A DNA stretch of 64,000 bases from a virus (IMGVR_UViG_3300033121_001713:35475-99474); one strand, 5' to 3'; counted from the first letter of the stretch, positions 519 through 54,884 are shown. Numbers and translations: made by a program. Notes: generated by a model from the sequence alone, not told the origin.

Positions 519-526
519 CACTTCTG

Positions 527-2185
527 ATGAAATTCATCAACGAAGCGGAGATTATTTCGAAGTGGGCTCCTATCATTGAGTCTGCCACCGAAATCCGCGA
601 CAGAAACAAACTGACGTGGATGTCGAAGATGTGCCACGTCCATGAGCTGTTCGAGAACGGTCTCCTCCTGGAGAACAACTCGTACTCTCAGCTGACGGCC
701 GTCAATGGCATGGGTGATACCAGGTTCCCTGGCAACCCGACCACCCAGGCTAACTTCCGCAACCAGACCCCTGGTTCCGGTGATAAGGCAACCCTGTTGC
801 CTCTGGCGATGCAGGTAGCTGCACAAACGATCGGCTTGGACCTCGTTCCAGTCGTTCCGATGGCATCTCCTATCGGCATCCACACCTACATGGACTATGT
901 CTATTCTGGTGGTAAGACGGCTGGCACTGGGACCGACATCCCACTGATGATCAAGCTGAACTACGGCACGACCGCCACTCCTCCGACCTTCACGGTTGGT
1001 GCGACCTCGGCCACGTCGAACGGCGTTAGCTTCTCGGTCATCGGCACTTCGAGGATCGACGGTTTCCCGATCCTGCACGTCCGTGGTTCTTTGACCTCTG
1101 GCACGCTGCTTTCCAACGCACAGTCCATCCTGAACTCCGGTCCTGGTATCGGCGTCGGTGGTGCTACTGGTACGACCGGTGGTAACGCCTTCACGGTGGA
1201 ACTGGTCAAGGCGCTGGAAGATCACGTCACCGGTTTCTCGGGCGACGCTCTTGCTAACCTGACTTACACTGGTGAGACCTTCACCCCGTACAGCAGGACA
1301 CAGGGTGAGAGCACGATGGACAACGTGATGAACCTGCAGCTCTTCAACAAGTCCGTCGAAGCTAAGACCTTCCAGGTTGCGGCTGCCGTGACTCGTGAGC
1401 AGGTTCAGGACCTCAAGCAGTTCGGTATCGATGCTATCGCTCAGGTGGAATCGGTCCTGATCAATGAGGTGACCCAGTCCATCAACAAGAACATCCTCGG
1501 CAGGCTGTTCGAACTCGGCGAAAGGAACCACGTTAAGGTCATCCGCACTCAGGGCACGAACTTCTTCGTGAACCTTGGCGCCACGGCCCTCACGGTCACA
1601 GCGTCGGCTTCTGCGAACACCGCTACGGCGTTCGGTAGCTACATCAACGACAGCACTCTGCTGGCTACGACGATGGCAGCTACGGAAAACGTGAACTCTG
1701 CTTCCGAGAACCTCCACACCCGTCAGAGGAAGATCATGTCGAAGATCCTCGCGATCTCGAACATGATTGCTACCCGCGGCAGGCGTGGACCTGCTACGTT
1801 CGTCGTGACGAACGCCCAGGTGTGCTCGGCTCTGCAAGATTGCGCAGGCTTCGTTGCGGCTCCAATGGCCAACACGATGAACCAGATGGGCGGTTCCCTC
1901 TACCCAGTGGGTACCCTCGCTGGCCTCGCGGTCTACAGCGACCCGAACATGGCATGGAACGATACCCGCTTCTGCGTCGGTAGGAAGGGCACTGGCGATG
2001 AGCCTGGTGTGATCTTCATGCCGTACCTGATGGCGGAAAGCGTGCAGGCCATCGTTGAAGGTACCATGAGCCCGAAGCTCGCCGTCAAGTCGAGGTACGC
2101 CCTCGTTGAGGCAGGCTTCTTCCCTGAGACTATGTACCTCACCTCCGGTGTGTACATGGGAGCTCAGTTCGGCGCACTGGTCTAA
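527..2185 (+). CDS. gp23: Major capsid protein (T4 gp23-like)
   Basis: KWAPII start, LVPVVPMASP, QDLKQFGIDA, RRGPATFVV, FMPY...SPKLAVKSRYAL C-terminus typical of gp23; strong codon bias. Confidence 0.95.
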   Translation: MKFINEAEIISKWAPIIESATEIRDRNKLTWMSKMCHVHELFENGLLLENNSYSQLTAVNGMGDTRFPGNPTTQANFRNQTPGSGDKATLLPLAMQVAAQTIGLDLVPVVPMASPIGIHTYMDYVYSGGKTAGTGTDIPLMIKLNYGTTATPPTFTVGATSATSNGVSFSVIGTSRIDGFPILHVRGSLTSGTLLSNAQSILNSGPGIGVGGATGTTGGNAFTVELVKALEDHVTGFSGDALANLTYTGETFTPYSRTQGESTMDNVMNLQLFNKSVEAKTFQVAAAVTREQVQDLKQFGIDAIAQVESVLINEVTQSINKNILGRLFELGERNHVKVIRTQGTNFFVNLGATALTVTASASANTATAFGSYINDSTLLATTMAATENVNSASENLHTRQRKIMSKILAISNMIATRGRRGPATFVVTNAQVCSALQDCAGFVAAPMANTMNQMGGSLYPVGTLAGLAVYSDPNMAWNDTRFCVGRKGTGDEPGVIFMPYLMAESVQAIVEGTMSPKLAVKSRYALVEAGFFPETMYLTSGVYMGAQFGALV

Positions 2186-2240: not shown

Positions 2241-2257
2241 GTGCATAGAGATTGATT

Positions 2258-10002: not shown

Positions 10003-10590
10003 GTGGATTTCCAAACTGTCGCTACAGTCATCTCAACCGCAGGTACCTTAGGGCTTGGCGGTTGGTTCATCAAATACAGAGCTGATTCCAGGAGGGCCAA
10101 GGCTCTTGATCACGAGAGCCTGATAGCAGAGCTTACTAGGATCACCGAAGAGAGGGAAAAGGACTGCGATCGCAAGCTCAAGTCTCAGCAGGAGCAGATA
10201 GACCTGCTAAGGGCTCGCGTAAACATCCTCAACTTTACCACCGCGGTCTCTTCGCTTCCACACTGGTGGAAAGATATCGAAGGCCGATACCTAGAGGTCG
10301 ATCGGGCATTCGAGGTCTCTATCGCTGCTCCGCTTGGCAAGAAGCGCGAGGATTTCATTGGACACCTAGACGAGGAGATTTTCGAGAACAAGGACCTTTC
10401 GAATGAGCTTCAATCAATCGACCTGGATGCACTGATGAGCTCTTCGAAAGCGACCGTCAGGAAGAACGTTCGATTCCATGAGAGCTTGCCTCTCTACACG
10501 ATCCTCAAGGAAGTGCTCACATTCGATCACTTGGGCGGCCGCGTAGGTTACGCCGGAATCGCATACCCTCAGACCGATGACCAAGACTGA
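10003..10590 (+). CDS. Membrane-anchored PAS-domain protein (holin/antiholin-like candidate)
   Basis: N-terminal hydrophobic segment, coiled coil, then HWWKDIEGRYLEVDRAFE...GKKREDFIGH (PAS_4-like). Confidence 0.65.
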   Translation: MDFQTVATVISTAGTLGLGGWFIKYRADSRRAKALDHESLIAELTRITEEREKDCDRKLKSQQEQIDLLRARVNILNFTTAVSSLPHWWKDIEGRYLEVDRAFEVSIAAPLGKKREDFIGHLDEEIFENKDLSNELQSIDLDALMSSSKATVRKNVRFHESLPLYTILKEVLTFDHLGGRVGYAGIAYPQTDDQD

Positions 10591-12383
10591 TGCGCTATCG
10601 AGTTCAGATCACAGGCAACAATTCTACCAGGAACTCTGGTGACACTCTCGTCATAGAGTTCAACAGCGCCCTTGCGTCCGTTTCATCGGTAGCTTCGGTT
10701 GACGTAGAGTTCGAGCCATGGCCGCTTCCATCCAATGCGTGGCATGATATCGAGCTGAGATGGTCACATGACAAGATGTCATGGTCAGCGTGGGCCCCTT
10801 ACATTACCAATAACTCAAGGGACTCTGCGATCCTTCAAAAGGTAGTCGATACGGGTAGGGACTTCTTCATTCAACTCAAGGCGATCAGGGCTGGGGTCGA
10901 CACGACTGAGCTCAACGCTACGGCGGCTACGATCATCTACTCAGAAGGAGAAGAGCCAGAGGAGGCCCTGGAATCGCCGTTCAACGAGAGCAATTGTTCT
11001 GCCTCTTCGTGCTTGTCTACCAATTACTGCAACGGCTTCAATCTGTCATGTGATCCTTCTGCCCTGTTTCGGCCATACGACTCGATGGGTCCAGCGATCA
11101 AGATGTTCCATGATCTCAATTGCGTGGCAGCTGAGATCTATGGGATCTGTGTTCGCTATTTCAGGGTAGAGCCGCTTGAGGAGTCGGCCGATGCCGTATT
11201 GAAAGAGTACTCGATCTTCGATGCAACCGATGTCAAGGACATCAAGGTCATGGTCCCAAACAACGAGATCCCAGATAACCGGTTCACTTACACTGAGCTG
11301 GACATGGATTTCATGGTGGATGGATTCGAGATCCAAATCGTTCCACAGCATTTCGAGAGAGCATTTGGCAAGGGAAAGTTTCCACAGGAGAACGATTTCA
11401 TCTACATACCCATCATAGATCGGCTATTTGAGGTGAACTCATCTTATCTCTTTAGGTCATTCATGGCGGAGCCTGCTTATCACAAGGTGATGCTATACAA
11501 GGCCAATGACAAGACCAACGTCCTCAAGGATCGAGCGAGGCCGGAGATCGGTGAGGCCGTCGAAGATATGACTGTCAGCTTTGAGGATATCCTCAGAAAG
11601 GATATCGACGAAGAAGCTGATCGGATAACAAAGCCTCTACAGTACAAGACGATATCGATCGGTGGCTATGACCACGTAAGGTCGGCGATCAACGAGACTC
11701 TGGAGATAAAAGAAGAGGACGTCTATAACTACTTCACGCTGATATCGAAGTATCGCTATGATATGTCAAGCGTTGAGCACGATCAGTTAGCAGTCAGGTA
11801 CAAGGCCAAGGTGCCTTCCACAGATAGGGTCGCTTTCTCTTTCTGGATTCAGCCTACAAAGTCTACGCTCGATCATCCTACCGACATCATCTTGACTAAT
11901 GCCACTGGTGCATCTGGGATGTCTCTTTCCCTCGACTATGGCCTTACCGGTCCAACTGGATCGCAGATCATCGCTCCAGTATCAGCGAACCTTACGATCG
12001 GTGCTTCTTCCTTTGCATTCGATAACCTAACAACGGTTGCAGGCCAGTGGTATGGATTCGTTCTCAATGTGATGCCATCATTCGGACAAGTGGAACTCTC
12101 GATCTGGGAAATGAAACCTGCGAGCGAGAAGACTACTGCCCTCAGATTGGCATATCACAGGGTCAGAGACTGTGATCCAACGACAACAATAACTTCCGAA
12201 GATTCGATCTCACTCCCTGGATCTGATTGTCTTCTTACGAGCATCAGGCTTTGGAAGGAGAGCATCGAGGAGGAGAAGCAACCGACCATCCTTAACCAAT
12301 ATGTGGTCAAGGATTCCCACCTAAGTTCAATGATAGATGACTGCATCCCGCCGCTTAGGATGCACAAACAGTACAACAGATGA
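10590..12383 (+). CDS. Neck/head-completion protein (gp14-like core) with extra N- and C-terminal beta domains
   Basis: YGICVRYF...DAVLKEY...FEIQI..HFERAFG...PQENDFIYIPIIDRLFEV; C-terminal LamG-like pattern (FSFWIQP, QWYGFV, SIRLW). Confidence 0.7.
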   Translation: MRYRVQITGNNSTRNSGDTLVIEFNSALASVSSVASVDVEFEPWPLPSNAWHDIELRWSHDKMSWSAWAPYITNNSRDSAILQKVVDTGRDFFIQLKAIRAGVDTTELNATAATIIYSEGEEPEEALESPFNESNCSASSCLSTNYCNGFNLSCDPSALFRPYDSMGPAIKMFHDLNCVAAEIYGICVRYFRVEPLEESADAVLKEYSIFDATDVKDIKVMVPNNEIPDNRFTYTELDMDFMVDGFEIQIVPQHFERAFGKGKFPQENDFIYIPIIDRLFEVNSSYLFRSFMAEPAYHKVMLYKANDKTNVLKDRARPEIGEAVEDMTVSFEDILRKDIDEEADRITKPLQYKTISIGGYDHVRSAINETLEIKEEDVYNYFTLISKYRYDMSSVEHDQLAVRYKAKVPSTDRVAFSFWIQPTKSTLDHPTDIILTNATGASGMSLSLDYGLTGPTGSQIIAPVSANLTIGASSFAFDNLTTVAGQWYGFVLNVMPSFGQVELSIWEMKPASEKTTALRLAYHRVRDCDPTTTITSEDSISLPGSDCLLTSIRLWKESIEEEKQPTILNQYVVKDSHLSSMIDDCIPPLRMHKQYNR

Positions 12384-14976: not shown

Positions 14977-17900
14977 ATGGCAATCTCACCTAGCCTGTCA
15001 AAGTTCGTTTCGAGCGGAGTCTACAGGCTCGTCATCGATCGAAGCCAGGTCATCAACAACATCTCCCAGACCCTGAGGCTGATAATCGGCTTCTCGAAGA
15101 AAGGTCCTTTCAACACCCCAGTGTTCGTTCAGGATTCGGTTTTCTTCAAGGCGATCTTCGGAGAAATTGACCTGCAGCTCGAAAGAAAGGGTTCGTTCTT
15201 CCATAGGACGGTCCTAACCTGTCTCGAGCGAGGCCCTGTCGTAGTCTTGAACCTGTTGAATCTTGACAACGATGTCGACAAGGCTGACTTCCGTTCGGTC
15301 TCTACCGCAGCATGGCAAGCCAACTCGAGCAGGGTCAATACCGCAGTCTCGAATTTCTTCAACAAGGACAAGTTCTGGTTCTCCGATCCTAAGGCCTTGA
15401 TCGCTACCGCGGCTGATACCGATGTACAGAGCGCAGTGGCCAATAGGCTCCTGAACATCGCGAATACCGGTCGCAAAACGATCTCGGTCATCACCAAGAA
15501 GTCAGACATCCTGGGCTTCGATGCCATCGCCAAGGATTACTTCGGTGCTGGTAAGGTGCCAGAGTTCATGAAAGACAACGACTACATCTACGATTACCTC
15601 GTAGACGTCATCGTCGTGGAAGGAGATTTCTCCGACTACACCGCTCTCTCATTGGATCCGGTGTTCGGCCCTTATTTCGATTCGACCGGTCTCAAGAAGA
15701 CCTATGTCGATCAGTTCGGATTCGAGAGGGACGGCCTCGATGCATTCCTCTCCCTCGAGAACGTCAACGTGCTCGGCGTTTACACTGGCGCAATGATCCC
15801 TGATTTCATCACGAAGTCCGGTGAACCAATCTATATCGAGGACATTGTCAACCGCGAGACCAGCAAGACTGGCCTCCTGCTCTCTATCGATCGCCAGGTC
15901 TTCGACGATGAACCAGAAACTATCTCTGGAGACAGGCTTGATCTGGTCGGTCATACGCTGGAATCCGAACAGCCTGCTCTGCTAGATTTCATGTCCTACT
16001 ATGGGACCATTTCTGGAACCTCCGGTTTCACTGGTTCAACCGGTATCACTTCTCTGATAGTAGCTGCTACTGCCGGCGTCGCAGGAGCCCAGGCCCTTCT
16101 CAGCGCATCTACTGCCCTCCAGGCCGCAGCCGGTTGGACGAACGGTAGGTACGACACGATGACGATCTATGGTCCGTCGGCCACTTTGCCTTCCGGATTC
16201 ACGTCGGCATTCATTTCAGCTGCCGAGATGGCCGCATTCGTCGCCGATATTTCGACGAGCACCTCCTTCGTGAAGGTTGGAGCATCGGCCACCACCGGTT
16301 CGTCTGCCAACTATTCCGACGTCAGCTCCGCGGTTTACTCTTCCACGACCGACACTCTCACGGTGAAAGTGTCCTATCTTGTGAGCGCGAGCGAAGGCGT
16401 CACTGGCCCGACATCGAACTCGAACGGCTTCCTGCATATCCTGGCAACTGGCGCAACGCCTAACGGTGGAACTGCATCGGTTCCGATCATCAAGAAGCTC
16501 GATTTCGTCTTCGCTGCTGGTGGTTGGATCTACGCTGGTAAGGACAGCACCCTCTATCAACAGAATCTGGCCGGTACTTTGACCGATGGCGATGGCGTCA
16601 TCGTGAGCGGCGCCTCATATGGTTACGCTCAGTTCAATCGAGTGCAGACCTTCGATTTCTCTGGCGCCACGTTCTCTGGGGTCTCTTCCTTCGGTTCAGA
16701 GACGCCAACTCTCACCAAGCAGAAGAACTATGTCACCGTCAGGGCTTATGACAACAACGATTTCACTGGTGCGACTTCCATCGCTGCTGCGACTTCGTAT
16801 GTCTTCAGGAGCTTCACTGGCGATCTGAACGAGTCCTTCGAGGTCTGGGGCGGTACTTCCTACCCAACTCCTACGAACACTGTCTACTTTGACAATGGAT
16901 CTACTGGCCCTCTGGGTCTTGATGGATTCACAGGAGAGATCAGGAAGGGCCAAGGCCTGGTCATGAACTTCGGCGGCACCGGTGGAGCTACATCGATCGA
17001 TCCATTGACTGGAAAGTCAAGGCTCACGAAGATCGTCTCTGTTACGGAGTACACCGATCCTACTTCGCCTCTTTACAAGAAGATCAAGGTGGTCACAGTG
17101 GATCCGATCTTCATCAATGGCAACGAAGTTGAGCGCTACAAGAACATCGTCGATTTCGTCGAGCACTACAGGTTCCATGTTCTCAGAGGATACACTCTAA
17201 GGACGGAGCAGATGCCTGACGGCACGGCCACCAGGGAGAATGAAATCCTCCAAGTCCTCTACGACACTGGAATTGCCAACGCATTGGCTGACCGCGAGGT
17301 GGTGCAGTTCAGGTACCTGGTCGACTCTTTCCAAGGCACCATCGAGCCAGGCACCAAGGTTCGCCTCTCGAGGCTGGCCATGAACAGGCAAAACGTCTTG
17401 GCGATCGCTAACATGCCTTCTGTCGAGCAGTTTAGGGAGAGCAAAAACCCGCTATTCAAGTTCGACTCTGCATCTGGTTTCGATGCTCGATACATCAAGG
17501 ATGGCGGTAATCTCGACCTGAATCCGACCAATACGTTCAGCCTACCTGGCATCAACGATGGATCGAATTTCATCGCTTTCTACGGGCCTAACCTCTTGGT
17601 TCGTGAGAGCGGAAAGACGATCTCGATCCCACCGGCTGGACATGTGTCTAACCTGTACATCGACAAATACAACCTCGCCCTGCCATATGCGATCGTCGCC
17701 GGCCCAAGGAGAGGCGTCGTTACTGGCACCGGCCTACAAGGCGTCGAATACAACTTCGATAGGACAGACCTCGATTACATCGAGCCATTCGGATACAATG
17801 CGATCCTCAACAAGAGAGGATTTGGGTTGGTCATCAATGCTAACCAAACTGCCCAACAGAACGTGCTCTCGGCCCTCAGCCAGATCCACGTTCGCGAGTT

Positions 17901-18204
17901 GGTGATCTATGTTCAGGAAGGCATCGAGGCTATTCTCAAGAACTACGTGTGGGAGTTCAATACTCCACAGGTTCGCCTTGAGATCAAGACCCTTGCAGAT
18001 GGTTTCATGAAAGGCATCCTGGCGGATCAGGGAGTATATGACTTCCAGAACGTAATGGATTCCTCGAACAACACCGACGAGGTCATCCAGGACAATAAAG
18101 CCATCCTTGACACCTACATCGAGCCGGTCCGTGGCATGGGAGCTATCATCCATAGGACCATTCTGCTCAAGAAGGGTGTTATAAAAACGGGGAATTTCTT
18201 GTGA
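14977..18204 (+). CDS. gp18: Contractile tail sheath protein with a large Ser/Thr/Gly-rich insertion
   Basis: SSGVYRLVID, GFSKKGPFNTP, PPAGHVS, VAGPRRGV, IHVRELV, WEFNTPQVR, VMDSSNNT. Confidence 0.95.
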   Translation: MAISPSLSKFVSSGVYRLVIDRSQVINNISQTLRLIIGFSKKGPFNTPVFVQDSVFFKAIFGEIDLQLERKGSFFHRTVLTCLERGPVVVLNLLNLDNDVDKADFRSVSTAAWQANSSRVNTAVSNFFNKDKFWFSDPKALIATAADTDVQSAVANRLLNIANTGRKTISVITKKSDILGFDAIAKDYFGAGKVPEFMKDNDYIYDYLVDVIVVEGDFSDYTALSLDPVFGPYFDSTGLKKTYVDQFGFERDGLDAFLSLENVNVLGVYTGAMIPDFITKSGEPIYIEDIVNRETSKTGLLLSIDRQVFDDEPETISGDRLDLVGHTLESEQPALLDFMSYYGTISGTSGFTGSTGITSLIVAATAGVAGAQALLSASTALQAAAGWTNGRYDTMTIYGPSATLPSGFTSAFISAAEMAAFVADISTSTSFVKVGASATTGSSANYSDVSSAVYSSTTDTLTVKVSYLVSASEGVTGPTSNSNGFLHILATGATPNGGTASVPIIKKLDFVFAAGGWIYAGKDSTLYQQNLAGTLTDGDGVIVSGASYGYAQFNRVQTFDFSGATFSGVSSFGSETPTLTKQKNYVTVRAYDNNDFTGATSIAAATSYVFRSFTGDLNESFEVWGGTSYPTPTNTVYFDNGSTGPLGLDGFTGEIRKGQGLVMNFGGTGGATSIDPLTGKSRLTKIVSVTEYTDPTSPLYKKIKVVTVDPIFINGNEVERYKNIVDFVEHYRFHVLRGYTLRTEQMPDGTATRENEILQVLYDTGIANALADREVVQFRYLVDSFQGTIEPGTKVRLSRLAMNRQNVLAIANMPSVEQFRESKNPLFKFDSASGFDARYIKDGGNLDLNPTNTFSLPGINDGSNFIAFYGPNLLVRESGKTISIPPAGHVSNLYIDKYNLALPYAIVAGPRRGVVTGTGLQGVEYNFDRTDLDYIEPFGYNAILNKRGFGLVINANQTAQQNVLSALSQIHVRELVIYVQEGIEAILKNYVWEFNTPQVRLEIKTLADGFMKGILADQGVYDFQNVMDSSNNTDEVIQDNKAILDTYIEPVRGMGAIIHRTILLKKGVIKTGNFL

Positions 18205-18220
18205 CTGTAAGTAATTGAGG

Positions 18221-21103: not shown

Positions 21104-21107
21104 CACC

Positions 21108-37041: not shown

Positions 37042-37787
37042 TGAGGCGTATCAATGGGATAGATGGCACTGGGCGTTATTACGTAGTAGATGAGTCAAGT
37101 GGCCTTGCGCTTCCTTCGGTGACGACCATCCTAGGCAAGATGTCGGAAAAGAAAGGCCTAGAGGAATGGAAGAAGAGGATGGGAGACGAGAAGGCCGCTC
37201 AAGTCTCTCGATTTTCCGCTAACCGAGGAACGTTCATGCACCTGATGCACGAAAAGACGCTCGATCTCAGGTTCAATCAAGGGCTGAAGGAAGGTGCCAT
37301 CAAACAGGCGTATGCAGAGGCCCTGGAAGAGACAAAGGACATGACGACGGAGGAGCAGGAATGCGGAAGAAGGCTCTTCTTCAACTTCTACTCTACCGAC
37401 TTCTACTCGCGCATCTCTCGTGTAGCCCTTCAGGAGAGTCCTGTCTGGTCATCGATTGGCGGTGGATACGCTGGAACGTTGGACCTTCTCGTGGAAGACG
37501 ATTTCGGTAACATAAAGCTCATAGACTTCAAGAGTTCCAAGAAACCGAAGAAGCGCGAATGGATCAGGAATTACGAGATGCAGGCCGCAGCGTATAGCGT
37601 AGCTTGTAACGAGAGGATGGGGATCTTTCCTAAGTCCGCCGAGATCTGGATCTCTTGTGAGACCGGAGAAGTCCAGGAATTCGTCATGTCTAGGGGCCAG
37701 TTGATGGATGCATTCAAGGAATTCCATGGCCTAGTCAAGGAGTATCACAAGAAGTTTCAGTCTCCTACGCCAACCTCGGCCACATGA
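37041..37787 (+). CDS. PD-(D/E)XK exonuclease (RecB/Cas4-like)
   Basis: LPSVTTIL, RGTFMH, YAGTLDL, LIDFKSS, QAAAYS. Confidence 0.9.
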   Translation: MRRINGIDGTGRYYVVDESSGLALPSVTTILGKMSEKKGLEEWKKRMGDEKAAQVSRFSANRGTFMHLMHEKTLDLRFNQGLKEGAIKQAYAEALEETKDMTTEEQECGRRLFFNFYSTDFYSRISRVALQESPVWSSIGGGYAGTLDLLVEDDFGNIKLIDFKSSKKPKKREWIRNYEMQAAAYSVACNERMGIFPKSAEIWISCETGEVQEFVMSRGQLMDAFKEFHGLVKEYHKKFQSPTPTSAT

Positions 37788-38458
37788 AGATCATCAAAGC
37801 ATCGAGCGTGAAGCCAGCACCTACCATTCCAAAGATCATCCATCAGATTTGGCTGGGCCCAAAGAAGATGCCAAGGAAGATGATCGATTCTTGGATCGAG
37901 AAGAATCCAACATGGCAACACTTGCTATGGACCGAAGAGACGCTTCGCGACCATCCGATCAGGAACAGGAGGCAATTCGATGAGATCGAGGAATGGGCTG
38001 GCAAGGCCGATATCCTACGGTATGAACTGCTGCTGGAGTTTGGAGGCTTCTTCTGTGACGCAGATTCCCTGTGTGTCAAGCCATTGGATGATTTCCTCAT
38101 TCAGAACGATTCGTTTGCGGTCTTTGAGAATGAGCAGGTGAGAGCTGGGCTAGTTGCAAACGGTTACATTGGGGCCACTAGAGGCAACAGGCTTATGCAA
38201 GCATTGGTGGATGGCATTTCGATCAAAGAGGTGTCACAGGCGAAGACCGGGAGGATGGCCTGGCAGAACGTTGGGCCTGTCTATTTCACCGAGACTATCA
38301 TGAGGCTATCGTATCCCATTGGGATATACCCTTCCTGGCTCTTCATCCCAGAACACTACACTGGGGCCAGGCATCCTAATCCAGGGCAGCCGTATTGTTA
38401 TCAGTTCTGGGGATCTACCAGGGAACTCAGCGACCCAACCTTCTACGAAAAACTATGA
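37784..38458 (+). CDS. Glycosyltransferase, GT32/OCH1-like (DxD)
   Basis: IPKIIHQIWLG, KADILRYELL..FGGFFCDAD, GPVYFT. Confidence 0.9.
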   Translation: MKIIKASSVKPAPTIPKIIHQIWLGPKKMPRKMIDSWIEKNPTWQHLLWTEETLRDHPIRNRRQFDEIEEWAGKADILRYELLLEFGGFFCDADSLCVKPLDDFLIQNDSFAVFENEQVRAGLVANGYIGATRGNRLMQALVDGISIKEVSQAKTGRMAWQNVGPVYFTETIMRLSYPIGIYPSWLFIPEHYTGARHPNPGQPYCYQFWGSTRELSDPTFYEKL

Positions 38459-39174
38459 GCGTCTCATTCCTCATCCCAGTCTATAGAGTCAATGTAGATT
38501 GGTTCAAGCAGGCTATGAAATCGGTCCAGGCGGAGATGATTTCCATCAATGAGCAATCTGTAGAAACGATCATAGTGAACGATGGATCCGATCAGGAAGA
38601 TCTTCTTGAGTATCTGGATTCTATCGAATCTGAACAGATCAAAGTGATTCACTCACCAGCGAACGTTGGAGTTGCTGGCGCATTGAACCTTGGGATAGGA
38701 TCGTGCTCTAACCGTCTCATCGCTAGGATGGACGCCGATGACATAATTCTCCCAGGCCGGCTCAGGAAGCAAATCCACTACATGGATACGAACCCAGAGG
38801 TTGCGGCCCTCTCGACTGGCCTCAATTACCTGATGTTTCATGAAGGGCAATGGGGAGTAGCCGAGCCACCAGTCATACATCCACCACGAGTGACAATCGA
38901 TCTAGCGAAGAGATCTCTGTGGTTCATGAATCATCCAACGGTGATGTTTCGTAAGAGCAAGCTCATTGAGGCTGGAATGTATGATGATTCCCTCAAGGGT
39001 TTCTCAGAAGACTACGAACTCTGGATCAGGATGCTAAGGCTGGGTATGCGGTTAGATAATCTCCAAGAATCCACGCTCCTGCTTCGTCTAAACCCAAGCA
39101 GCGCCACTAAGAGTTTCAATCAGGCGAATCACGATTTCTTACTGAAGACACAAGCGAGCCTCAATGATCTTTGA
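38455..39174 (+). CDS. Glycosyltransferase family 2
   Basis: VSFLIPVY, IIVNDGSD, IARMDADD, HPTVMFR, EDYELW. Confidence 0.92.
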   Translation: MSVSFLIPVYRVNVDWFKQAMKSVQAEMISINEQSVETIIVNDGSDQEDLLEYLDSIESEQIKVIHSPANVGVAGALNLGIGSCSNRLIARMDADDIILPGRLRKQIHYMDTNPEVAALSTGLNYLMFHEGQWGVAEPPVIHPPRVTIDLAKRSLWFMNHPTVMFRKSKLIEAGMYDDSLKGFSEDYELWIRMLRLGMRLDNLQESTLLLRLNPSSATKSFNQANHDFLLKTQASLNDL

Positions 39175-40000
39175 TCTAGCCGACTCCTCATTTGCGCATT
39201 GCGCGTATAGCAACAATCCGACTCCTCCTCTCCAGGAACCCAAGGAACTCAGGTGGAATAGGGATCTGTCGAACCCAAAATCGGATGCCATCTTCATAAC
39301 TGATCATGCAATCCCTCAGTTAGCTGGATTGCAAGGCCGACGAAAGATAGCGTGGCTGCTCGAGCCCATGGAGATCAATTCTGGTCTCTATCAGTGGGTG
39401 AGGCAGAATCATGCTAACTTCTTCGCTGTGATGTCACACGACATCGAGTATTTTTCCGATCTGCCAAATTACCTGTGGGTGCCTTTCGGTGGGTGCTGGA
39501 TCCCGAAGGATCAGTGGGGATATAGTGGCGATAGGAGTGGCGTGTCGATAGTCGCCTCGGAGAAGAGGATGACATTGGGCCACTGTCTTCGCCATCAGAT
39601 CATCCAGTCTGCAAAATCGCAGGGCCTCGACTTGAAGTGCTATGGGCGAGCCTATCGACGAGTCGAACACAAGATTGAGACGATGGATCGAGGCTTTCAG
39701 GTCGTGATAGAGAATGCGAGCCGAAATGGCTATTTCACCGAGAAACTGATCGACTGCCTTGTCACGGGAACGGTGCCTATCTACTGGGGGTGCCCTAATC
39801 TGGAGGAATATGGCTTCGACGAAAAAGGCATAGTGAGAGTATCAAACGAACTAGAGGCTATCGAAGCCATCAGGCGCTGCTCGGAAGCAGAGCCGGTGGA
39901 TTTCGCTGCCTCGATCACGAACAACATGAACGCGGCCAGGAAATTCATCCTCGCCGAGGATTACATCCATGAACATTACCTCGAATTGTTAAGCAAATGA
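39164..40000 (+). CDS. Glycosyltransferase family 10-like (alpha-1,3/4-fucosyltransferase fold)
   Basis: FQVVIEN...YFTEKLIDCL..GTVPIYWG. Confidence 0.82.
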   Translation: MIFDLADSSFAHCAYSNNPTPPLQEPKELRWNRDLSNPKSDAIFITDHAIPQLAGLQGRRKIAWLLEPMEINSGLYQWVRQNHANFFAVMSHDIEYFSDLPNYLWVPFGGCWIPKDQWGYSGDRSGVSIVASEKRMTLGHCLRHQIIQSAKSQGLDLKCYGRAYRRVEHKIETMDRGFQVVIENASRNGYFTEKLIDCLVTGTVPIYWGCPNLEEYGFDEKGIVRVSNELEAIEAIRRCSEAEPVDFAASITNNMNAARKFILAEDYIHEHYLELLSK

Positions 40001-40698
40001 GCGAAGAGACACAGCAACCAAACGTCGATCATTACAAGATGATCGAGGAGGATCCAATGTCGGTCATGACACCGATGCACGGTCCCATCGACACTTCCAT
40101 TAGGCAGCAGATCGACGAGTATTTCGGCCAAGGAGGCGATGCCAAGAGATACGATTACCCCGAGCTGACGCCGGACTCGATCGTCTTCGACGTTGGTGCC
40201 TTTGAGGGCGAATTCGCTCAGAGGATCCATGACAAGTACGGATCTTTCGTCTACATGTTCGAGATCGCTCCAGAGTTCATCGATACGCTTAACAAGCGGT
40301 ATGGCGATCACGAAAAGATCTGGATCTTCCAGCATGGACTAGGCCATGAGGCAGGGAGTTTCAGCCTTCGAAGAGCAGCGAACGCCACCACCATCCATGC
40401 GCAAGAAGAGGATGGCGAAGCGGAGATCAAGAAGCTCTCAGCGTTCATGGAATCCGAGATGGATGGAAAGGACGTAGATCTCATCAAGATCAACATCGAG
40501 GGCCCAGAATACGATCTGGTCGATCACATCCTAGATAGCGGACTCATCAAGAGGTTCAAGAACCTTCAGGTCCAATTCCACAACTTCGTGCCAGATGCCG
40601 GCAAGCGGTTGCTCGCGATCAGGAAGAGGCTGAAGGAGACCCACGATATGACTTGGTCGTTCGATTTTGTGTTTGAGAATTGGAAGCTTCGAGAGTGA
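39997..40698 (+). CDS. FkbM-family methyltransferase
   Basis: VFDVGAFEG, VDLIKINIEGPEY, QVQFH. Confidence 0.9.
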   Translation: MSEETQQPNVDHYKMIEEDPMSVMTPMHGPIDTSIRQQIDEYFGQGGDAKRYDYPELTPDSIVFDVGAFEGEFAQRIHDKYGSFVYMFEIAPEFIDTLNKRYGDHEKIWIFQHGLGHEAGSFSLRRAANATTIHAQEEDGEAEIKKLSAFMESEMDGKDVDLIKINIEGPEYDLVDHILDSGLIKRFKNLQVQFHNFVPDAGKRLLAIRKRLKETHDMTWSFDFVFENWKLRE

Positions 40699-41270
40699 AC
40701 TTCTGTGTCTACTTGCACGTCCATCACGATGTCGGCTATCCGATCATTTTCTACGTCGGCAAGGGATCTAGAAAACGCTCTACTCTTCGCCAAAGCCGAA
40801 ATGTTCTTTGGAAGCGTATCGTAGCTAAGCATGGCTTCGAGACAATCATTCATCGAGATAATCTGTCCGAAGCCGAAGCTCACCGGATTGAGAGAGATCT
40901 GATTCGATCGATTGGTCGTCGAGATCTCGGAACAGGTCCGTTGTGTAACTTCACTGAAGGAGGAGAGGGATCTAGCGGACGACAGCTTTCGGAGGAATCC
41001 AGGAAGAAGATGTCAATTGCTAAGCGAGGGAAGAAGCTCTCAGACGCTCATCGAGCCAAATTGAAGCATCTTCGTTCTGATCCCGCATATCGACAGAAGC
41101 TTTCAGTTATCAAAAGATCCGATCCAGAATCTAGGAGCAGAGCGATCGATGCATTGAAGAAAGCAAGGTCCGCTCGATCTCCATTTCATCGCCCGGAAAC
41201 GATTGAGAAGATGAAGAAGTCGTCTAAGGAAAGAACCAGAATCAATGGAAGATTTGCCAAAGAAAGCTGA
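40695..41270 (+). mobile_element. Free-standing GIY-YIG-like/NUMOD3 homing endonuclease inside the sugar cluster
   Basis: FCVYLH...FYVGKG...NFTEGGEG; SEESRKKMS repeats; GTG start overlaps the upstream stop. Confidence 0.87.
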
Positions 41271-42378
41271 GAAGATCCTGGTAACTGGAGGTTCCGGTCT
41301 AGTTGCGCATCACCTGAAGCCGCTGCTCCCTGACGCAACGTACGTCTCGAGCAAGGACCATGATCTCACTGAGAAGAGCCACTGCGATCGACTGTTAAAC
41401 CAGGGTTGGGATCGCATCATCCACCTGCCCGCGAGGGTAGGTGGGATCCTGGACAACCAGGCTCGCCCGCTCGATTACCTCGAGGAGAACATCCTCATGA
41501 ACACTTACTTCCTTCGCAAGGCTAGGAAGATGAGAGTGAAAAGGCTGACTGCCATGCTCTCCTCGTGCATCTATCCGATCAACTGGCACGAGTATCCGAT
41601 GCGAGAGGATGTCATCTTCAAGGGAGAGCCTAGCAAATCGAACTATGGATATGCTATTGCCAAGAGGGCGCTCGGCATCCAGGTAGATATGTGCAACGAT
41701 GGCTTCCAGAAGTCTCGAGATCTACGCGACAATGCATGCCACTGGAATTACTTGATCGCATGCAACCTCTATGGAGAAGGAGACAAGGATGGCCATGCCC
41801 AGAGCCACTTCATCACAGCCCTGATAAGGAAGATCTACGATGCCAATCTCTGTGGATCTGGCTTCATCAACCTCTTAGGCGATGGAACGCCTATGCGTCA
41901 GTTCATGCATGCTAAAGATCTGGCCATGGCTATCAAGCGGATGATCGATGAGGACATCACAGAATCGTTCAACGTCACCGTTCCTGAGAACTACACGATC
42001 AGGGACATGGCAGAGATTGGCCTTATGGCCACGGGATCGGGGCATTTGAAGGTTCAATTTGATGAGTCCGAAGCAGAGGCCAAGTTCCGAAACGGCGAGC
42101 ATCGCAAGGACATCAGTAACGAAAAAATGATGTCGTTGATGCCAGGATTCGAGTTCACGAGTCTGGCAGACGGCATAAGAGCCGCGTATGAAGACCTCCA
42201 ACGAATTTGGAAAGAAGGACGTCGACCAGAGAGGACTCTCGACAGCGTCCATAGTGAAGGATTTCGAGGACGGCGGGTTCATCAGAACCTGGTCGATCCA
42301 TATCCCGCCGGAGACGACGGAGGAGTTGAGGAAGACCTTCGAGACGAAATGGATCAACACAGGGAAGAAGGAGCGTGA
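41245..42378 (+). CDS. fcl: GDP-L-fucose synthase-family epimerase/reductase with C-terminal extension
   Basis: ILVTGGSGLV, ARVGGI, LSSCIYP, YAIAKR, NLYG, GDGTPMRQFMH. Confidence 0.88.
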   Translation: MEDLPKKAEKILVTGGSGLVAHHLKPLLPDATYVSSKDHDLTEKSHCDRLLNQGWDRIIHLPARVGGILDNQARPLDYLEENILMNTYFLRKARKMRVKRLTAMLSSCIYPINWHEYPMREDVIFKGEPSKSNYGYAIAKRALGIQVDMCNDGFQKSRDLRDNACHWNYLIACNLYGEGDKDGHAQSHFITALIRKIYDANLCGSGFINLLGDGTPMRQFMHAKDLAMAIKRMIDEDITESFNVTVPENYTIRDMAEIGLMATGSGHLKVQFDESEAEAKFRNGEHRKDISNEKMMSLMPGFEFTSLADGIRAAYEDLQRIWKEGRRPERTLDSVHSEGFRGRRVHQNLVDPYPAGDDGGVEEDLRDEMDQHREEGA

Positions 42379-43390
42379 GTTCAGGCAGAAAGCGGCCTCG
42401 AGGTTCGGCGCTCAGCATGTAGTCGCTTGTAATAGCGGCACATCGGCCCTAGTAGCAGCCCTCAAGTCTATCGGTGTAGGTCCTGGAGACGAGGTGATCT
42501 CGACTCCTTACACTTTCATCGCAACAAACACATCGATCCTTGAGGTCGGTGCAAAGCCGGTCTTCGCTGACATCAATTACTCGACCCTTAACCTGGATCC
42601 AGAATCGGTCAGGTCAAGGATAACCCCAAGGACCAAGGCTATCATCTGTGTTCATTTTGGCGGCTTGCCGGTCGACCTAGATCGAATGAGGGCGGTGGCC
42701 AAGGAACATGGGCTTCCATTGATAGAAGATTCCGCGCATGCGATGGGATCCGCTTACAAGGGAGACCCGATAGGAGCTAAGGGCGACTATGTCACATTCT
42801 CATTCCAGGTCGTCAAGATCGTTACCTGTGGAGACGGTGGATTGATCTGTACTGATGATCCGGAGTCTTACAAACGGCTCAAGCGTTTCGTGTGGTATGG
42901 GATCGACAGGGAGAACAAGGTGGCCGATCCGCTCGACCCTTTGCCAAATGACATCACGGAGCTCGGTCTGAAGGCGAACATGAATGATATCACTGCGACG
43001 ATCGCATGCGTTGCGATGGATAACCTCGATCGCCAGCTGGAAGTGAGAAAAACGGTCGGAGAGAGGTATCGAAAGGACTTAGCTGGGTTGAATAAACTCA
43101 CATTGCTAGACTACGGTCCCAGCGACGTCTACCAACCGAACTATCAGATCTTTCCAGTCCATGTCTCTGATAGAGACGGCTTCGCTAAGTTCATGTTCTC
43201 ACGTGGAATACAGGTGAACGTTAACAATCGGCGAAACGACCGGTATACGATCTTTGGCGGACTGAGAGATGATTTGCCTAACGCTGCAAGGGCAGATCTT
43301 GACACCATACTCCTTCCTTGCCATGGGGATCTCTCCGAGGCCGACATGGATAGGATCATCTCGTCAATTAAGGAGTTCGATGCCATCTGA
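42188..43390 (+). CDS. DegT/DnrJ/EryC1 PLP-dependent sugar aminotransferase
   Basis: NSGTSAL, GPGDEVI, IEDSAHAMG, FSFQVVKIVTCGDGG (PLP Lys present). Confidence 0.92.
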   Translation: MKTSNEFGKKDVDQRGLSTASIVKDFEDGGFIRTWSIHIPPETTEELRKTFETKWINTGKKEREFRQKAASRFGAQHVVACNSGTSALVAALKSIGVGPGDEVISTPYTFIATNTSILEVGAKPVFADINYSTLNLDPESVRSRITPRTKAIICVHFGGLPVDLDRMRAVAKEHGLPLIEDSAHAMGSAYKGDPIGAKGDYVTFSFQVVKIVTCGDGGLICTDDPESYKRLKRFVWYGIDRENKVADPLDPLPNDITELGLKANMNDITATIACVAMDNLDRQLEVRKTVGERYRKDLAGLNKLTLLDYGPSDVYQPNYQIFPVHVSDRDGFAKFMFSRGIQVNVNNRRNDRYTIFGGLRDDLPNAARADLDTILLPCHGDLSEADMDRIISSIKEFDAI

Positions 43391-44156
43391 TTTCCTGGAT
43401 AGCGAATTCACTATCATCGGCAAGGATGGTTTCGTAGGATCGACCCTGATGAAAGGGCTGCCAGGAGCAAATGGATTCGGCTCTAAGGACTCCCATCTGG
43501 CACCATCCATGCCGCATGGCAATGTTGTTATCTGTGGAGCCAGAGGATCCAAATTCGCTGCTAACCAGGACCCAAGAAAGGATGCCCTCGAGATCGCTGA
43601 GCTCTTCTTGACAGTCTCTGACCTTCGACGATACAAGAGGATCATACTAGTCTCCACCATCGATGTCTACGGATCCAAGCATTCGAGGCACGAGGGAGAT
43701 ATCAGGGATGCAGAGACTCCTTATGGGATCCACAGGAGAGAGCTGGAGGATCTGTTGCTAGATCGATTTGACGATAAGTTGTTCATTGTCAGGTTGCCAT
43801 CGATCTTCGGTCCAGGGATGAAGAAGAATCTCCTCTTTGACCTGATCAATAGAAGGCCGATTGGACCGATAAACATCGCTTCGGAGCAACAGTGGTATGA
43901 CATGAGAGATTTCAGCTCTGATCTGATTTTCATGATCAGATCAGGATATAAAGAGCTGAACCTCTTCACGGAGCCAATGACAAACGGCGAACTGTTATCG
44001 ATGTTTGCCGGCATCCAGCACGAGGTCATATTTGATCCGAAGGCAGCAAAGATGTACGATCACAGAACGACATCGACCAAATCTGGATATTGGCAAAGCA
44101 AAGAAGCAGTATCATCAAAGATCATGGACTTCATCAAACCCGGCCAAACCGAATGA
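43380..44156 (+). CDS. NAD-dependent epimerase/dehydratase
   Basis: IIGKDGFVGS, STIDVY, YGIHRRELE, IVRLPSIFG. Confidence 0.85.
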   Translation: MPSDFLDSEFTIIGKDGFVGSTLMKGLPGANGFGSKDSHLAPSMPHGNVVICGARGSKFAANQDPRKDALEIAELFLTVSDLRRYKRIILVSTIDVYGSKHSRHEGDIRDAETPYGIHRRELEDLLLDRFDDKLFIVRLPSIFGPGMKKNLLFDLINRRPIGPINIASEQQWYDMRDFSSDLIFMIRSGYKELNLFTEPMTNGELLSMFAGIQHEVIFDPKAAKMYDHRTTSTKSGYWQSKEAVSSKIMDFIKPGQTE

Positions 44157-44998
44157 TCTCTGCTAGCCTCCTGGGTGGAATGGGCAATAACCTGTTCCAG
44201 ATAGCCAACGCCCTCGCCAGGGCTAAGGAAGCGAATTGCGACGTCAGGATCCCGAAGACAGTCGAGCGTTACCATTTTGGGCCACTGAACGGTTCCTTGG
44301 AAGTTGAGCTCGAAAGGATCTTCGCTGACACCTCTTACCTCAGGGACCTGGAGCCAGCCAGCCAGTGGGTAGGCAATTGGCGGACTTACACCCACCAGGA
44401 CATGGCTGGTGGATTCTTTGGTTATTCTAAGCCAGCTCTTCCTGGACCAGGAGAGGACCTGTGTTACGTTGGATACTTTCAATCACACAAGTATTTCGAT
44501 GGCCTCGAACGAGGTTGGCTTGGTCTTCGGCCTGACCTCCATGAGAAGGTCCTCAATCTCCATAGGCCTCATCCGAAAGATAGCATCGCGATACACTGGC
44601 GAGCAGGCGGAGATAGGAACAGGGCAGACACTTTGCCGTACCATCCAGTGGTGTCGATGGATTTCTATCGGCGTTCGATCGAGCTGATCAAAGGCAAAGC
44701 CGAAATAGCCAACCCATCGATCTACGTGATCAGCCAAGCTCCTGGATCCGTCGTAATGGAGAACTTTGGGAAGCTAGCAGATGATGTCGTTCACGTCGAT
44801 TCGAGCGTAGAGGATTCTTTCGCACTGATGGCGCTCTGTGCGCATGTTATCATTGGGAATTCGACTTTCTCTTGGTGGGGAGCGATGGCAAGCGAAATGA
44901 ATCCGATCGTTGTGGCTCCAAAGACTGAGTGGTTTGGGCCCAGCAACTCTCATCTCTATAAGGAAGACCTCTTTCCAGAAAATTGGATTTGCCTATGA
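44153..44998 (+). CDS. Glycosyltransferase family 11 (alpha-1,2-fucosyl/colitosyltransferase)
   Basis: GGMGNNLFQ, GYFQS.KYF, AIHWRAGGD, NSTFSWWGA, LFPENW. Confidence 0.9.
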   Translation: MISASLLGGMGNNLFQIANALARAKEANCDVRIPKTVERYHFGPLNGSLEVELERIFADTSYLRDLEPASQWVGNWRTYTHQDMAGGFFGYSKPALPGPGEDLCYVGYFQSHKYFDGLERGWLGLRPDLHEKVLNLHRPHPKDSIAIHWRAGGDRNRADTLPYHPVVSMDFYRRSIELIKGKAEIANPSIYVISQAPGSVVMENFGKLADDVVHVDSSVEDSFALMALCAHVIIGNSTFSWWGAMASEMNPIVVAPKTEWFGPSNSHLYKEDLFPENWICL

Positions 44999-45921
44999 GA
45001 GTCCTTATCATCGGATCCGGCTTCATGGGATCCCATCTCAGGTCGATGTTCGAGATCGATGGCTCGTATGAGACTGAAGTTGTCAGCCGAAAGAGTGGCA
45101 TAGACCTCACATCCATCGAATCGACTCGCTTGTGTTTTTCTAGGTTCAAACCGGAGATCATAATCAATGCTGCTGCTCATGTTGGCAACCTGAATTACGT
45201 TTCGGAGAACGCGGCTCAAGTGTGCCACGATAACTCCATGATGTTCATAAATCTCTACAAAGCGGCTTCGATTGAATGTAGAGACGCCGTGATCATCAAT
45301 CCATTGGCCAATTGTTCTTATCCTGGCAAAGTAGACATCCAGAAAGAGGCGAATTGGTGGGATGGCAGGCTCCACATATCGGTGGAGCCATATGGTATCT
45401 CCAAGAAACTAGGGTTCGTCCTGGCGAGCAGCTATTTCAGGAGTTATCAGATGCGCTCCATCAATCTCCTGATGCCTAATGCGTATGGGCCCATGGATTC
45501 CATCGACCCAAACCACACGCATGCCCTGAATGGCCTGATCATCAGGATGATGATAGCCAAGAGGAACGGTGATAGGAAATTCACAGTTTGGGGAACTGGA
45601 AGGCCCATAAGAGAGTGGATCTACATGGGAGACATGGCAAGGGTCATCAAGACGATCGTAGATGAGAGGATCCTCTTCAATGACATCTCGCCCATGAACG
45701 TGAGCGCGAATAATGCCATATCGGTCTCTGAATTGGCAGAAATGGTAAGGTCGACGTTGGATTTTGAAGCGGAGATCGTTTTTGACTCTTCTTACCAGGA
45801 CGGTGCCCCAGTCAAGATCATGAGCAACGCGATCTTCAGGCATTACTTTAAGGGCTTCGATTTCACTGGATTGCGCGATGGCATAGGACGCACAATCGGA
45901 TATTACCAGGGAAAGATATGA
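44995..45921 (+). CDS. Second Fcl-family epimerase/reductase (ColC/GDP-colitose synthase candidate)
   Basis: IIGSGFMG, AAHVG, NCSYP, YGISKK, NAYGP, VWGTGRPIREW. Confidence 0.8.
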   Translation: MRVLIIGSGFMGSHLRSMFEIDGSYETEVVSRKSGIDLTSIESTRLCFSRFKPEIIINAAAHVGNLNYVSENAAQVCHDNSMMFINLYKAASIECRDAVIINPLANCSYPGKVDIQKEANWWDGRLHISVEPYGISKKLGFVLASSYFRSYQMRSINLLMPNAYGPMDSIDPNHTHALNGLIIRMMIAKRNGDRKFTVWGTGRPIREWIYMGDMARVIKTIVDERILFNDISPMNVSANNAISVSELAEMVRSTLDFEAEIVFDSSYQDGAPVKIMSNAIFRHYFKGFDFTGLRDGIGRTIGYYQGKI

Positions 45922-47129
45922 ACGAGATCAGGGTACCGTTGACTTCTGACACTATCACGAATAGCGAAATAGATCAGCTTCGTGATTGGCTCGGAACATA
46001 TCCAAAACTGACTAAAGGAGACCTGACGCTCAAGTTCGAGAGAGAATGGTCGGCCGAAGTTGGCCTTCGATACTCGACTTTTGTCAATTCCGGCAGCTCT
46101 GCGATTTTGCTGACTCTTTCAGCAATGGTTGCGAAGGGTACCCTTCGACCAGGGAAAGACAAGATCGTCGTTCCTGCGCTGAGTTGGCTCACCGATGTCT
46201 CGAGCCCCATCAACCTGGGCTTCGAAGTTGTGCTCTGTGATGCCAATCCAATCGACCTATCATTGGACCTCGATCACCTCGAGCGGATCTTCGAGTCTGA
46301 CATTTCGACTAGGGCGGTCATCGTGGTATCCGTCCTGGGCCTGAGTCCAGACATGGATAGGCTAGTGAAGATGTGTCGGTCCGCTAATGCCACACTCATC
46401 GAGGATGTCTGTGAGTCTCTTGGCACCGACTTCAATGGAAATTGGCTGGGCACGTTTGGAGATGCATCAGTCTACTCCCTCTACTATGGACATCATGTCT
46501 CCACGATCGAAGGCGGGATGATATCCACTGACAATGAGGAACTTGATTCAGTGATCAGGTCCATGAGATCCCATGGATGGAGTAGAGACTGGTCGCATGA
46601 TCGAACAAAGGCTATGAATGAGCTGTATTCGATCGACGATTTCCAGTCGAAGTACGCCTTTTTCTACCCGGGCTATAATCTCAGGTCGACAGATCTTCAG
46701 GCTTTCATTGGTCGCTTGCAGGTTCCGAAGATAAAACGAGTGGCCGATCACAGGCATCAGAATTTCTTGGCGTACAATTCTGTGCTGAGCAATATCAACG
46801 GATTGCGACTCTCCGACGCAATCTCCAGGTCTAATTGCATATCGAATTTTGCTTATCCTATCCTTTTCGATTCATCCGACGAAAGGTCTTTCGCTGCGAC
46901 TCTCCTGGAGTACGCTGGAGTTGAATGCCGTCCGCTGATTGCAGGATCCATGGGTCGCCAGCCTTTCATGAAAGGGCTGACCAGCAATCAACAGACACCT
47001 TTCGCTAACATGATTCACACTCAAGGCATGTACCTTCCGAACAATCATTCGATGGGACAGCGTGAGATCGACATAGTGGCCGAATCCCTTGAACCTATCG
47101 TTCGTCGTCGGGCCTCCAGGAAGGCATAA
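45918..47129 (+). CDS. colD: GDP-4-keto-6-deoxy-D-mannose 3-dehydratase (ColD-like)
   Basis: VNSGSSA, IEDVCESLG, SLYYGHHVSTIEGGM (His replaces the PLP Lys), RSHGWSR, PGYNLR, ECRPLIAG. Confidence 0.8.
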   Translation: MNEIRVPLTSDTITNSEIDQLRDWLGTYPKLTKGDLTLKFEREWSAEVGLRYSTFVNSGSSAILLTLSAMVAKGTLRPGKDKIVVPALSWLTDVSSPINLGFEVVLCDANPIDLSLDLDHLERIFESDISTRAVIVVSVLGLSPDMDRLVKMCRSANATLIEDVCESLGTDFNGNWLGTFGDASVYSLYYGHHVSTIEGGMISTDNEELDSVIRSMRSHGWSRDWSHDRTKAMNELYSIDDFQSKYAFFYPGYNLRSTDLQAFIGRLQVPKIKRVADHRHQNFLAYNSVLSNINGLRLSDAISRSNCISNFAYPILFDSSDERSFAATLLEYAGVECRPLIAGSMGRQPFMKGLTSNQQTPFANMIHTQGMYLPNNHSMGQREIDIVAESLEPIVRRRASRKA

Positions 47130-54647: not shown

Positions 54648-54884
54648 ATGAGCCAAAAAAGCTCCGAACCGGACATGTCCCAACGCGTAGAAACAATCGG
54701 TCAGGCGATCTCTGTCCTGATCCAGACTGCGAATCTAGCACAGAGCCGAGGCATCCTATCTTTCGAAGATGCAGTCATAGTCAAATCGGCCATAGATTTC
54801 GTTCAAGATCGTATCAAGGAATCGGTTGCTAATCAACCGGCCGTGGTCAGCGGATCTATCGAAACAGACGAAATCACTCAATGA
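54648..54884 (+). CDS. Hypothetical protein
   Basis: QAISVLIQTANLAQSRGILSFEDA. Confidence 0.7.
   Translation: MSQKSSEPDMSQRVETIGQAISVLIQTANLAQSRGILSFEDAVIVKSAIDFVQDRIKESVANQPAVVSGSIETDEITQ

Follow-up and report, generated by a model that had tools for sequence, protein, structure and literature searches.

Does a phage encode both the enzyme and the acceptor sites for glycosylation of its own tail? This question is raised by a 64,000-nucleotide stretch of viral DNA (IMGVR_UViG_3300033121_001713:35475-99474; hereafter the window), which was taken from a viral contig of 99.5 kb (bases 35475-99474) and has nearly all of its genes on the plus strand. Genes were identified by PHROG and Pfam scans of the window proteins. 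The initial annotation proposed that a large insertion in the tail sheath protein carries about 11 G-[ASP]-[TS] tripeptides, and that these are surface-loop sites for O-glycosylation by phage-encoded glycosyltransferases. All 11 listed strings are present, all of them within residues 341-690 of the sheath, and the excess is confirmed below. The two elements concerned are as follows.

14977..18204, plus strand: tail sheath gene of the T4 gp18 type, 1075 aa (PF17482 in homologues; gp18 profile and VIA-align matches)
15997..17046, plus strand: beta-rich, lineage-specific insertion of the sheath, aa 341-690, 350 aa, holding all 11 motifs (composition profile and AlphaFold2, AF2)

The motifs start at residues 353, 399, 435, 441, 477, 492, 545, 563, 598, 641, and 670 (window 16033-16992), and the other 725 residues of the sheath contain none. 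When the insertion alone is shuffled, 3.25 +/- 1.7 motifs are expected against the 11 observed (p~1e-4), which rules out composition alone as a full explanation of the surplus. When coil residues and strand/helix residues are shuffled separately, the expectation is 3.6 (p=4e-4), which likewise rules out a difference in composition between loops and strands as a full explanation. The longer form [TS]G[ASP][TS] is found seven times in the insertion (0.8 expected), and G-x-T-[GA] also seven times (1.55 expected). The order of the residues matters, as the forward order gives 11 occurrences and five alternative orders of the same residue classes give 2-8. In an unbiased scan of residue pairs at spacings of 1-3, G..T at +2 ranks at the top of 267 pairs (z=4.3; 16 versus 6.4). 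The preference is for Thr; G-x-S occurs 8 versus 5.7 times, which is not significant. The motif type of the Clostridioides difficile glycosyltransferase SgtA, G-[PA]-T, is over-represented in the insertion beyond composition. The peptide motif is not the product of a motif in the DNA, as the codons differ at every site, and the bias thus acts on the protein. The Gly-x-Thr surplus in the insertion loops is therefore real, order-specific, and Thr-specific.

The protein that carries this surplus is a contractile sheath of the gp18 type in both core sequence and fold, including the C-terminal domain. The sheath profile (A1, 873-1066) aligns with gp18 446-638 at 3e-12, VIA-align of the sheath model matches gp18M (3FOA) with a Z of 13.6, and tblastn with the sheath matches the annotated sheaths of PTm1, PAU, and pT24. 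The nearest records of the sheath are those of a 462-kb metagenomic phage, the Tenacibaculum phage PTm1, and the Lak phages (34-42% identity), and a megablast comparison with phage records gave no match for the sheath. Identity reaches 60-61% in IMG/VR relatives of 246-294 kb. These sheath relatives place the phage among the uncultured T4-like jumbo phages.

The first ~340 and the last ~385 residues of the sheath jointly align with gp18-type sheaths, and the 350 residues between them have no gp18 counterpart. This insertion consists of 51% G/A/S/T overall (40-62% along the stretch), and charged residues are scarce. The AF2 model of the insertion alone, built from 35 homologues, is beta-rich, with a predicted local distance difference test score (pLDDT) of 83 and a predicted template modelling score (pTM) of 0.74. 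Searches of the PDB with this domain-only model found no fold match (best Foldseek E 0.12; best VIA Z 5.0), and fold searches with the whole-sheath model matched sheath cores only and gave no fold for the insertion. When 1.84 billion representatives were searched exhaustively with HMMER, relatives of the insertion numbered only four, and these are sheaths of ~1090 aa or fragments. Since the contractile lattice is built from the conserved core, the insertion most likely decorates the exterior of the tail.

The individual sites are listed below, with conservation counted over 39 database homologues that are 42-87% identical in the insertion.

16033..16041, plus strand: G353-S-T (FTGSTG), in a hairpin turn; motif kept in 23 of the 39 homologues
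16171..16179, plus strand: G399-P-S (YGPS); motif in 33 of 39; G399 and P400 invariant, third residue S/N/A/T/G
16279..16305, plus strand: G435-A-S and G441-S-S, in a variable loop; 9 of 39 and 14 of 39, respectively
16405..16413, plus strand: G477-P-T (TGPT), the best-conserved site; 38 of 39; G477 and P478 invariant, T479 >90%
16450..16458, plus strand: G492-A-T (TGAT); motif in 15 of 39, TG[VLI]T in the rest
16609..16617, plus strand: G545-A-S, in the hairpin turn between strands 540-544 and 547-560; 5 of 39
16663..16671, plus strand: G563-A-T (SGAT); 29 of 39
16768..16776, plus strand: G598-A-T (TGAT); 35 of 39, and also in clade B (insertion 26-29% identical), as seen in L075-L083
16897..16941, plus strand: G641-S-T, opening the five-triplet run GST-GPL-GLD-GFT-GEI; low pLDDT of 51-68
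16984..16992, plus strand: G670-A-T (GGAT); 14 of 39

Two AF2 models concur in placing 10 of the 11 motifs in hairpin turns or coil beside strands, which agrees with the loop location proposed initially. Each of the 39 homologues has 4-14 motifs, compared with ~2.5 expected. TGPT477, TGAT598, and YGPS399 are near-fixed and the remaining sites turn over; within the variable loop that holds G435 and G441, the positions of the motif move among homologues. Across 39 IMG/VR sheaths of clade A, the forward order is found in 44 alignment columns, whereas the other orders are found in 21-38. The surplus recurs in clade B, where the forward order occurs 74 times, compared with 21-47, and largely at different positions. 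The more distant sheaths are flat, without a forward-order surplus. Density is also uneven among close relatives, with two motifs in L050-L052 (core 69% identical) and three in L045. The setting is not that of a collagen-like G-x-y repeat, as 9 of the 11 motifs are dispersed and the insertion has only two short G-x-y runs (aa 347-358 and 641-655). The run GTS-GFT-GST-GIT (window 16015-16050) is modelled as a beta hairpin, and the run at window 16897-16941 is conserved as GPLGLxGFxG.

The initial annotation extended the motif to other virion proteins and described it as apparently rare in the enzymes. For this part of the proposal, two further structural proteins are relevant.

527..2185, plus strand: major capsid protein (phrog_138); motifs at chance (3 versus 1.99, P=0.32)
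10590..12383, plus strand: neck (head-closure-like) protein (phrog_679, 9e-6); three motifs in aa 440-473, borderline (3 versus 0.81, P=0.05)

The strings quoted for the capsid, for the neck, and for a small protein at 54274 do exist; however, the capsid count is not above chance and the neck count is borderline. Similarly, the raw density is 8.7 motifs per 1000 aa in structural proteins versus 1.7 in 31 enzymes, but after correction for composition the enzymes are at expectation (17 versus 14.1). Structural proteins other than the sheath and the small protein have 6 versus 3.0 motifs (P=0.09), and the whole contig without the sheath has 54 versus 43 expected, with no order bias. The observation is thus partly confirmed: it holds for the sheath insertion and goes too far for the remaining virion proteins.

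The following genes are relevant to the enzymes that might act on such sites.

54274..54606, plus strand: 110-aa protein containing a collagen-like run of six triplets, candidate substrate of the adjoining GT2 enzyme
54881..56104, plus strand: predicted GT2 glycosyltransferase with a TPR-like C-terminus, GmaR/SunS type (PF00535, 5e-10)
37784..47129, plus strand: glycan gene island (Pfam)
49141..50034, plus strand: further GT2, marginal (PF00535 6e-5, 23.4 bits versus a cutoff of 23.3)

The enzyme at 54881-56104 has more than 2000 homologues and is a GT-A (GT2) glycosyltransferase with a DXD motif; its PF00535 match is above the cutoff, and D117 and D119 are invariant in 17 homologues. When the profile of these 17 family members is compared with the PDB, the best group includes GmaR (1e-19), SunS (1e-18), and the 7MSK enzyme (1e-16), which we take to be the glycocin transferase ThuS (entries 22AO, 7MSP, 7MSN, and 7MSK). 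Generic GT2 enzymes (chondroitin synthase and TarS) are weaker at 4e-5 in the same search, and the phage enzyme is accordingly closer to protein and peptide glycosyltransferases than to polysaccharide GT2 enzymes. Designed consensus-TPR chains match positions 225-319 of the profile at 2e-4. One GT2-TPR homologue, L122 (G012:C1:20896-22086), has two in-frame TAG codons, which could reflect stop-codon reassignment or a broken gene.

The glycan island encodes a GT32-like DXD enzyme, a GT2, a GT10-like enzyme, an FkbM methyltransferase, and a GT11, together with three NAD-dependent epimerase/dehydratases and two DegT aminotransferases. Several open reading frames (ORFs) in the island overlap, and a NUMOD3 endonuclease gene (40680-41270) interrupts it. 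Downstream of the marginal GT2 at 49141-50034 are genes for a thymidylate-synthase-family protein (50050-51228; 392 aa, of which ~100 are inserted when compared with the Pfam model) and then a nucleoside 2-deoxyribosyltransferase-like protein (51228-51740). This pair may be a base-modification module.

The 110-aa protein contains five motifs (0.8 expected), an excess that is due to the single uninterrupted run GPT-GST-GLN-GLI-GPS-GAT. The protein has no Pfam or PHROG match, PF01391 included, and its six uninterrupted triplets were counted by eye; long relatives (an ORF in L001 and the fibres of G002) do match PF01391. Small homologous collagen-like proteins are encoded upstream of the enzyme in L004, L005, L116, and L117, and L001 has a 419-aa G-P-T/G-S-T collagen-like protein at this place. 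In more distant lineages, unrelated motif-rich ORFs adjoin the enzyme, one of which encodes 80 aa with the C-terminal end GSTGSTGVAGSTGSTG; two others are collagen-like. In addition, L121 (165-1229), L144, and L155 encode a 354-aa Cys-rich protein with 7-8 motifs (~1.1-1.2 expected), which is unrelated to the small collagen-like protein and lies directly upstream of a GT2-TPR homologue of 36-39% identity. The association of motif-rich neighbours with the enzyme is suggestive and not significant, and the best candidate for a substrate of the adjoining enzyme is the 110-aa protein. G002 is a complete relative whose proteome contains 362 motifs (143 expected); this surplus comes from six proteins, four of which are Pfam Collagen or PHROG tail-fibre proteins with 114, 41, 24, and 16 motifs. 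Such collagen-type fibres are the more obvious substrates. The first of these (L022:87-9614) is a 3175-aa collagen-like tail-fibre protein whose 114 motifs compare with 23 expected, and it has nine Pfam Collagen stretches. The two other motif-rich proteins of G002 lack G-x-y runs; one has 1295 aa and a weak, sub-cutoff PKD match at its C-terminus, and the other has 594 aa and no assigned family.

The reading that starts from these observations (the motif surplus, the loop location in the models, the enzyme family, and the gene neighbourhood) is that the sheath Gly-x-Thr sites are candidate O-glycosylation acceptors for the GT2(+TPR-like) enzyme at 54881-56104. We hold this reading, the likeliest of those considered, tentatively, at a little short of an even chance. 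The enzyme would prime Thr, and less often Ser, in flexible segments flanked by Gly, and would do so in the cytoplasm. Its first-line substrates would probably be collagen-like G-x-T proteins, namely the 110-aa neighbour in this phage and fibres in relatives, and elongation of the sugar could fall to the glycan island (37784-47129). There is precedent for a G-[AP]-[TS] acceptor, because SgtA glycosylates Thr and Ser in G-P-T and G-A-T peptides: this enzyme, which consists of a GT-A domain and four TPRs and is encoded beside bclA3, modifies peptides such as TGATGLIGPTGATGA and SGASGLIGPSGAGASGA with O-linked N-acetylglucosamine (O-GlcNAc), at Thr but also at Ser (PMC7157674). Its acceptors are G-P-T, G-A-T, and G-A-S peptides, and BclA3 is a collagen-like glycoprotein of the exosporium (PMC7157674).

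Several points weigh against glycosylation of the sheath. The motif was picked after inspection of the data. The TPR matches of the enzyme are below Pfam cutoffs (TPR_14 E 0.0045), with any TPR match in only 2 of the 17 members. Motif-rich neighbours are found at ~6 of 79 IMG/VR enzyme loci, against a background of ~2% per gene. The best-conserved sheath sites, G399-P400 and G477-P478, are invariant Gly-Pro turns and may be purely structural. Motif density, counted in the insertion only for G records and in the whole sheath for LR records, does not follow the enzyme. The enzyme accompanies a motif-rich sheath in G002, G003, G005, G008, and G009, and a non-enriched sheath in G018, G010, G012, G013, G014, LR756501, LR756502, and LR745206. 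The insertion of G018 has two motifs with an enzyme that is 70% identical, and relatives with a 39-70% identical enzyme hold 2-4 motifs in the homologous insertion. A strong excess is absent in all six phages without the enzyme (PTm1, LR756500, Lak-A2, PAU, pT24, and MaF61), among which MaF61 is marginal (5 versus 1.9, p=0.04), and no motif-rich sheath without the enzyme was found among the examined genomes. Because the enzyme is present with both rich and poor sheaths, it does not predict a motif-rich sheath; co-variation of sheath motif density with enzyme presence was not found across the G, LR, and enzyme-less records. The initial interpretation is partly supported: the enzyme family, the SgtA precedent, the collagen-like protein just upstream of the enzyme, and the loop sites are in its favor, and the density that is not tied to the enzyme and the lack of significant enrichment in capsid and neck are not. 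The phage is uncultured, and glycosylation of its tail is best called plausible.

Alternatively, Gly-x-Thr may mark tight turns and loop-to-strand junctions, with nothing attached, an explanation that is doubtful but has a substantial chance of being correct. It fits the location of 10 of the 11 motifs in turns or in coil beside strands, and the pair G399-P400 looks like a structural Gly-Pro turn because its third residue varies among S, N, A, T, and G, with G477-P478 being invariant as well. It also fits the close relatives that have the enzyme and just 2-3 motifs, and the distant relatives whose sheath insertions lack a surplus both with and without the enzyme. However, the surplus persists when secondary-structure classes are shuffled separately, and, since the Thr residues are mostly in coil, the fact that Thr is favored over Ser is not accounted for by beta propensity. 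Moreover, the motifs are gained and lost at ~44 columns and rebuilt elsewhere in clade B, which is not what a fixed structural role predicts. A further explanation, which we regard as rather unlikely, is that the enzyme glycosylates only collagen-like proteins (the 110-aa neighbour and tail fibres) and that the sheath motifs either have no connection with it or arise as a side effect of the same sequence style. Under this explanation, the conservation of a small collagen-like protein immediately upstream of the enzyme, the collagen and tail-fibre proteins among the most motif-rich of G002 (four of six), and the independence of enzyme presence from sheath motif count are all expected, and the known substrate of SgtA is a collagen-like repeat (PMC7157674). 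Nevertheless, SgtA takes short free peptides, so that a triple helix is not required (PMC7157674). The substrates of GmaR and SunS are not collagen either, and the enzyme also has motif-rich neighbours that are not collagen (the 354-aa protein of L121, L144, and L155, with 8 versus 1.2 motifs).

It is very improbable that the phage uses its glycosyltransferases and sugar genes for hypermodification of DNA or remodelling of the host envelope and not for virion proteins. The thymidylate-synthase-family (50050-51228) and 2-deoxyribosyltransferase-like (51228-51740) genes are indeed near the glycosyltransferases; however, the enzyme at 54881 groups specifically with protein and peptide glycosyltransferases, and a combination of GT10-like and GT11 families with DegT sugars typically belongs to glycan chains and not to known DNA glucosylation. 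DNA glycosylation and serotype conversion are the best-known roles of phage glycosyltransferases (PMC12619734), which is the other point in favor of this explanation.

If the sheath Gly-x-Thr sites are a real sequon, glycosylated virion proteins would be predictable from sequence across many aquatic jumbo phages, with a bearing on particle stability, adsorption, and recognition, and the enzyme and its tag would form a compact pair for cytoplasmic protein glycosylation. To our knowledge, glycosylation of phage particles is documented in very few phages, in none for the tail sheath, and with no defined acceptor motif. A still broader picture would be a complete virion O-glycosylation system in uncultured T4-like jumbo phages of a widespread clade, in which an SgtA/GmaR-like GT2-TPR enzyme primes Thr in Gly-x-Thr, the island elaborates the glycan, sequons in the outer domain of the sheath are gained and lost as a tunable glycan shield, and collagen-like fibres are glycosylated; we consider this unlikely as a whole. 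If the glycosylation reading is wrong, there is still a tripeptide bias, specific for residue order and for Thr, in a sheath decoration domain that is itself new.

The window has further genes for the virion and for other functions, including numerous enzymes of replication and nucleotide metabolism.

13081-14925: terminase (PHROG/Pfam scans)
20473-21027: tail tube (PHROG/Pfam scans)

Four homing-endonuclease-like genes (phrog_314, NUMOD3) are dispersed between essential genes (18215-18937, 21084-21767, 40680-41270, and 51737-52591), and the first of these directly follows the sheath gene. A nicotinamide adenine dinucleotide (NAD) salvage set at 56390-62135 comprises a weak phosphoribosyl pyrophosphate (PRPP)-synthetase-like gene, NAMPT (PF04095, 1e-40), and a cytidylyltransferase-like gene of the NMNAT type. 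A RimK-like ATP-grasp protein (ribosomal protein S6 glutaminyl transferase, phrog_2599) is encoded at 4572-6014. The largest ORF of the window (30307-34491; 1394 aa) is Ala-rich (11.8%) and has no Pfam or PHROG match. Antisense to the capsid gene is a 680-aa open frame (470-2512, minus strand) with a lower codon-usage score than the capsid frame, and it is probably not a gene.

Compared with other T4 gp18-type sheaths that have extra outer domains, the sheath of this phage has the same N- and C-terminal core with a domain added between the two, but the PDB holds no fold to which this 350-aa domain is detectably related, and relatives by sequence occur in this clade only. Modification of virion proteins in the cytoplasm by phage-encoded glycosyltransferases is reported for mycobacteriophages (Freeman et al. 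2023, as summarised in PMC12619734), and the candidate system described here would be of the same kind. The mycobacteriophage glycans are reported to be at the C-termini of capsid and tail-tube subunits, whereas the candidate sites of this phage are in internal loops of the sheath and its capsid is not enriched.

Among the enzymes, GmaR transfers GlcNAc onto flagellin and has a TPR domain after the glycosyltransferase domain (PMC9638930). The phage enzyme has its closest solved relatives by sequence in GmaR of Listeria, SunS, and the 7MSK enzyme. These are likewise GT2 enzymes; they work in the cytoplasm on folded proteins or peptides, and their glycosyltransferase domain is followed by a TPR or helical-repeat domain, where the phage enzyme has a TPR-like C-terminus. 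However, their identity to the phage enzyme is low, their flagellin and glycocin substrates share no G-x-T sequon, and GmaR has an extra antirepressor domain. The SgtA/BclA3 pair differs in its setting (spore versus phage) and is compared with the phage pair at the level of architecture; in addition, the sheath motifs are scattered in loops of a globular domain and not in a triple helix. Nevertheless, both enzymes have an N-terminal GT-A/GT2 domain, followed by TPRs in SgtA and by a TPR-like C-terminus in the phage enzyme, and are of similar size (358 aa in SgtA and 407 aa in the phage enzyme), and both genes adjoin a gene for a collagen-like G-x-T protein. The SgtA acceptor TGATGLIGPTGATGA, with Ser tolerated, closely resembles GLIGPSGAT in the 110-aa protein as well as TGAT, TGPT, and SGAS in the sheath.

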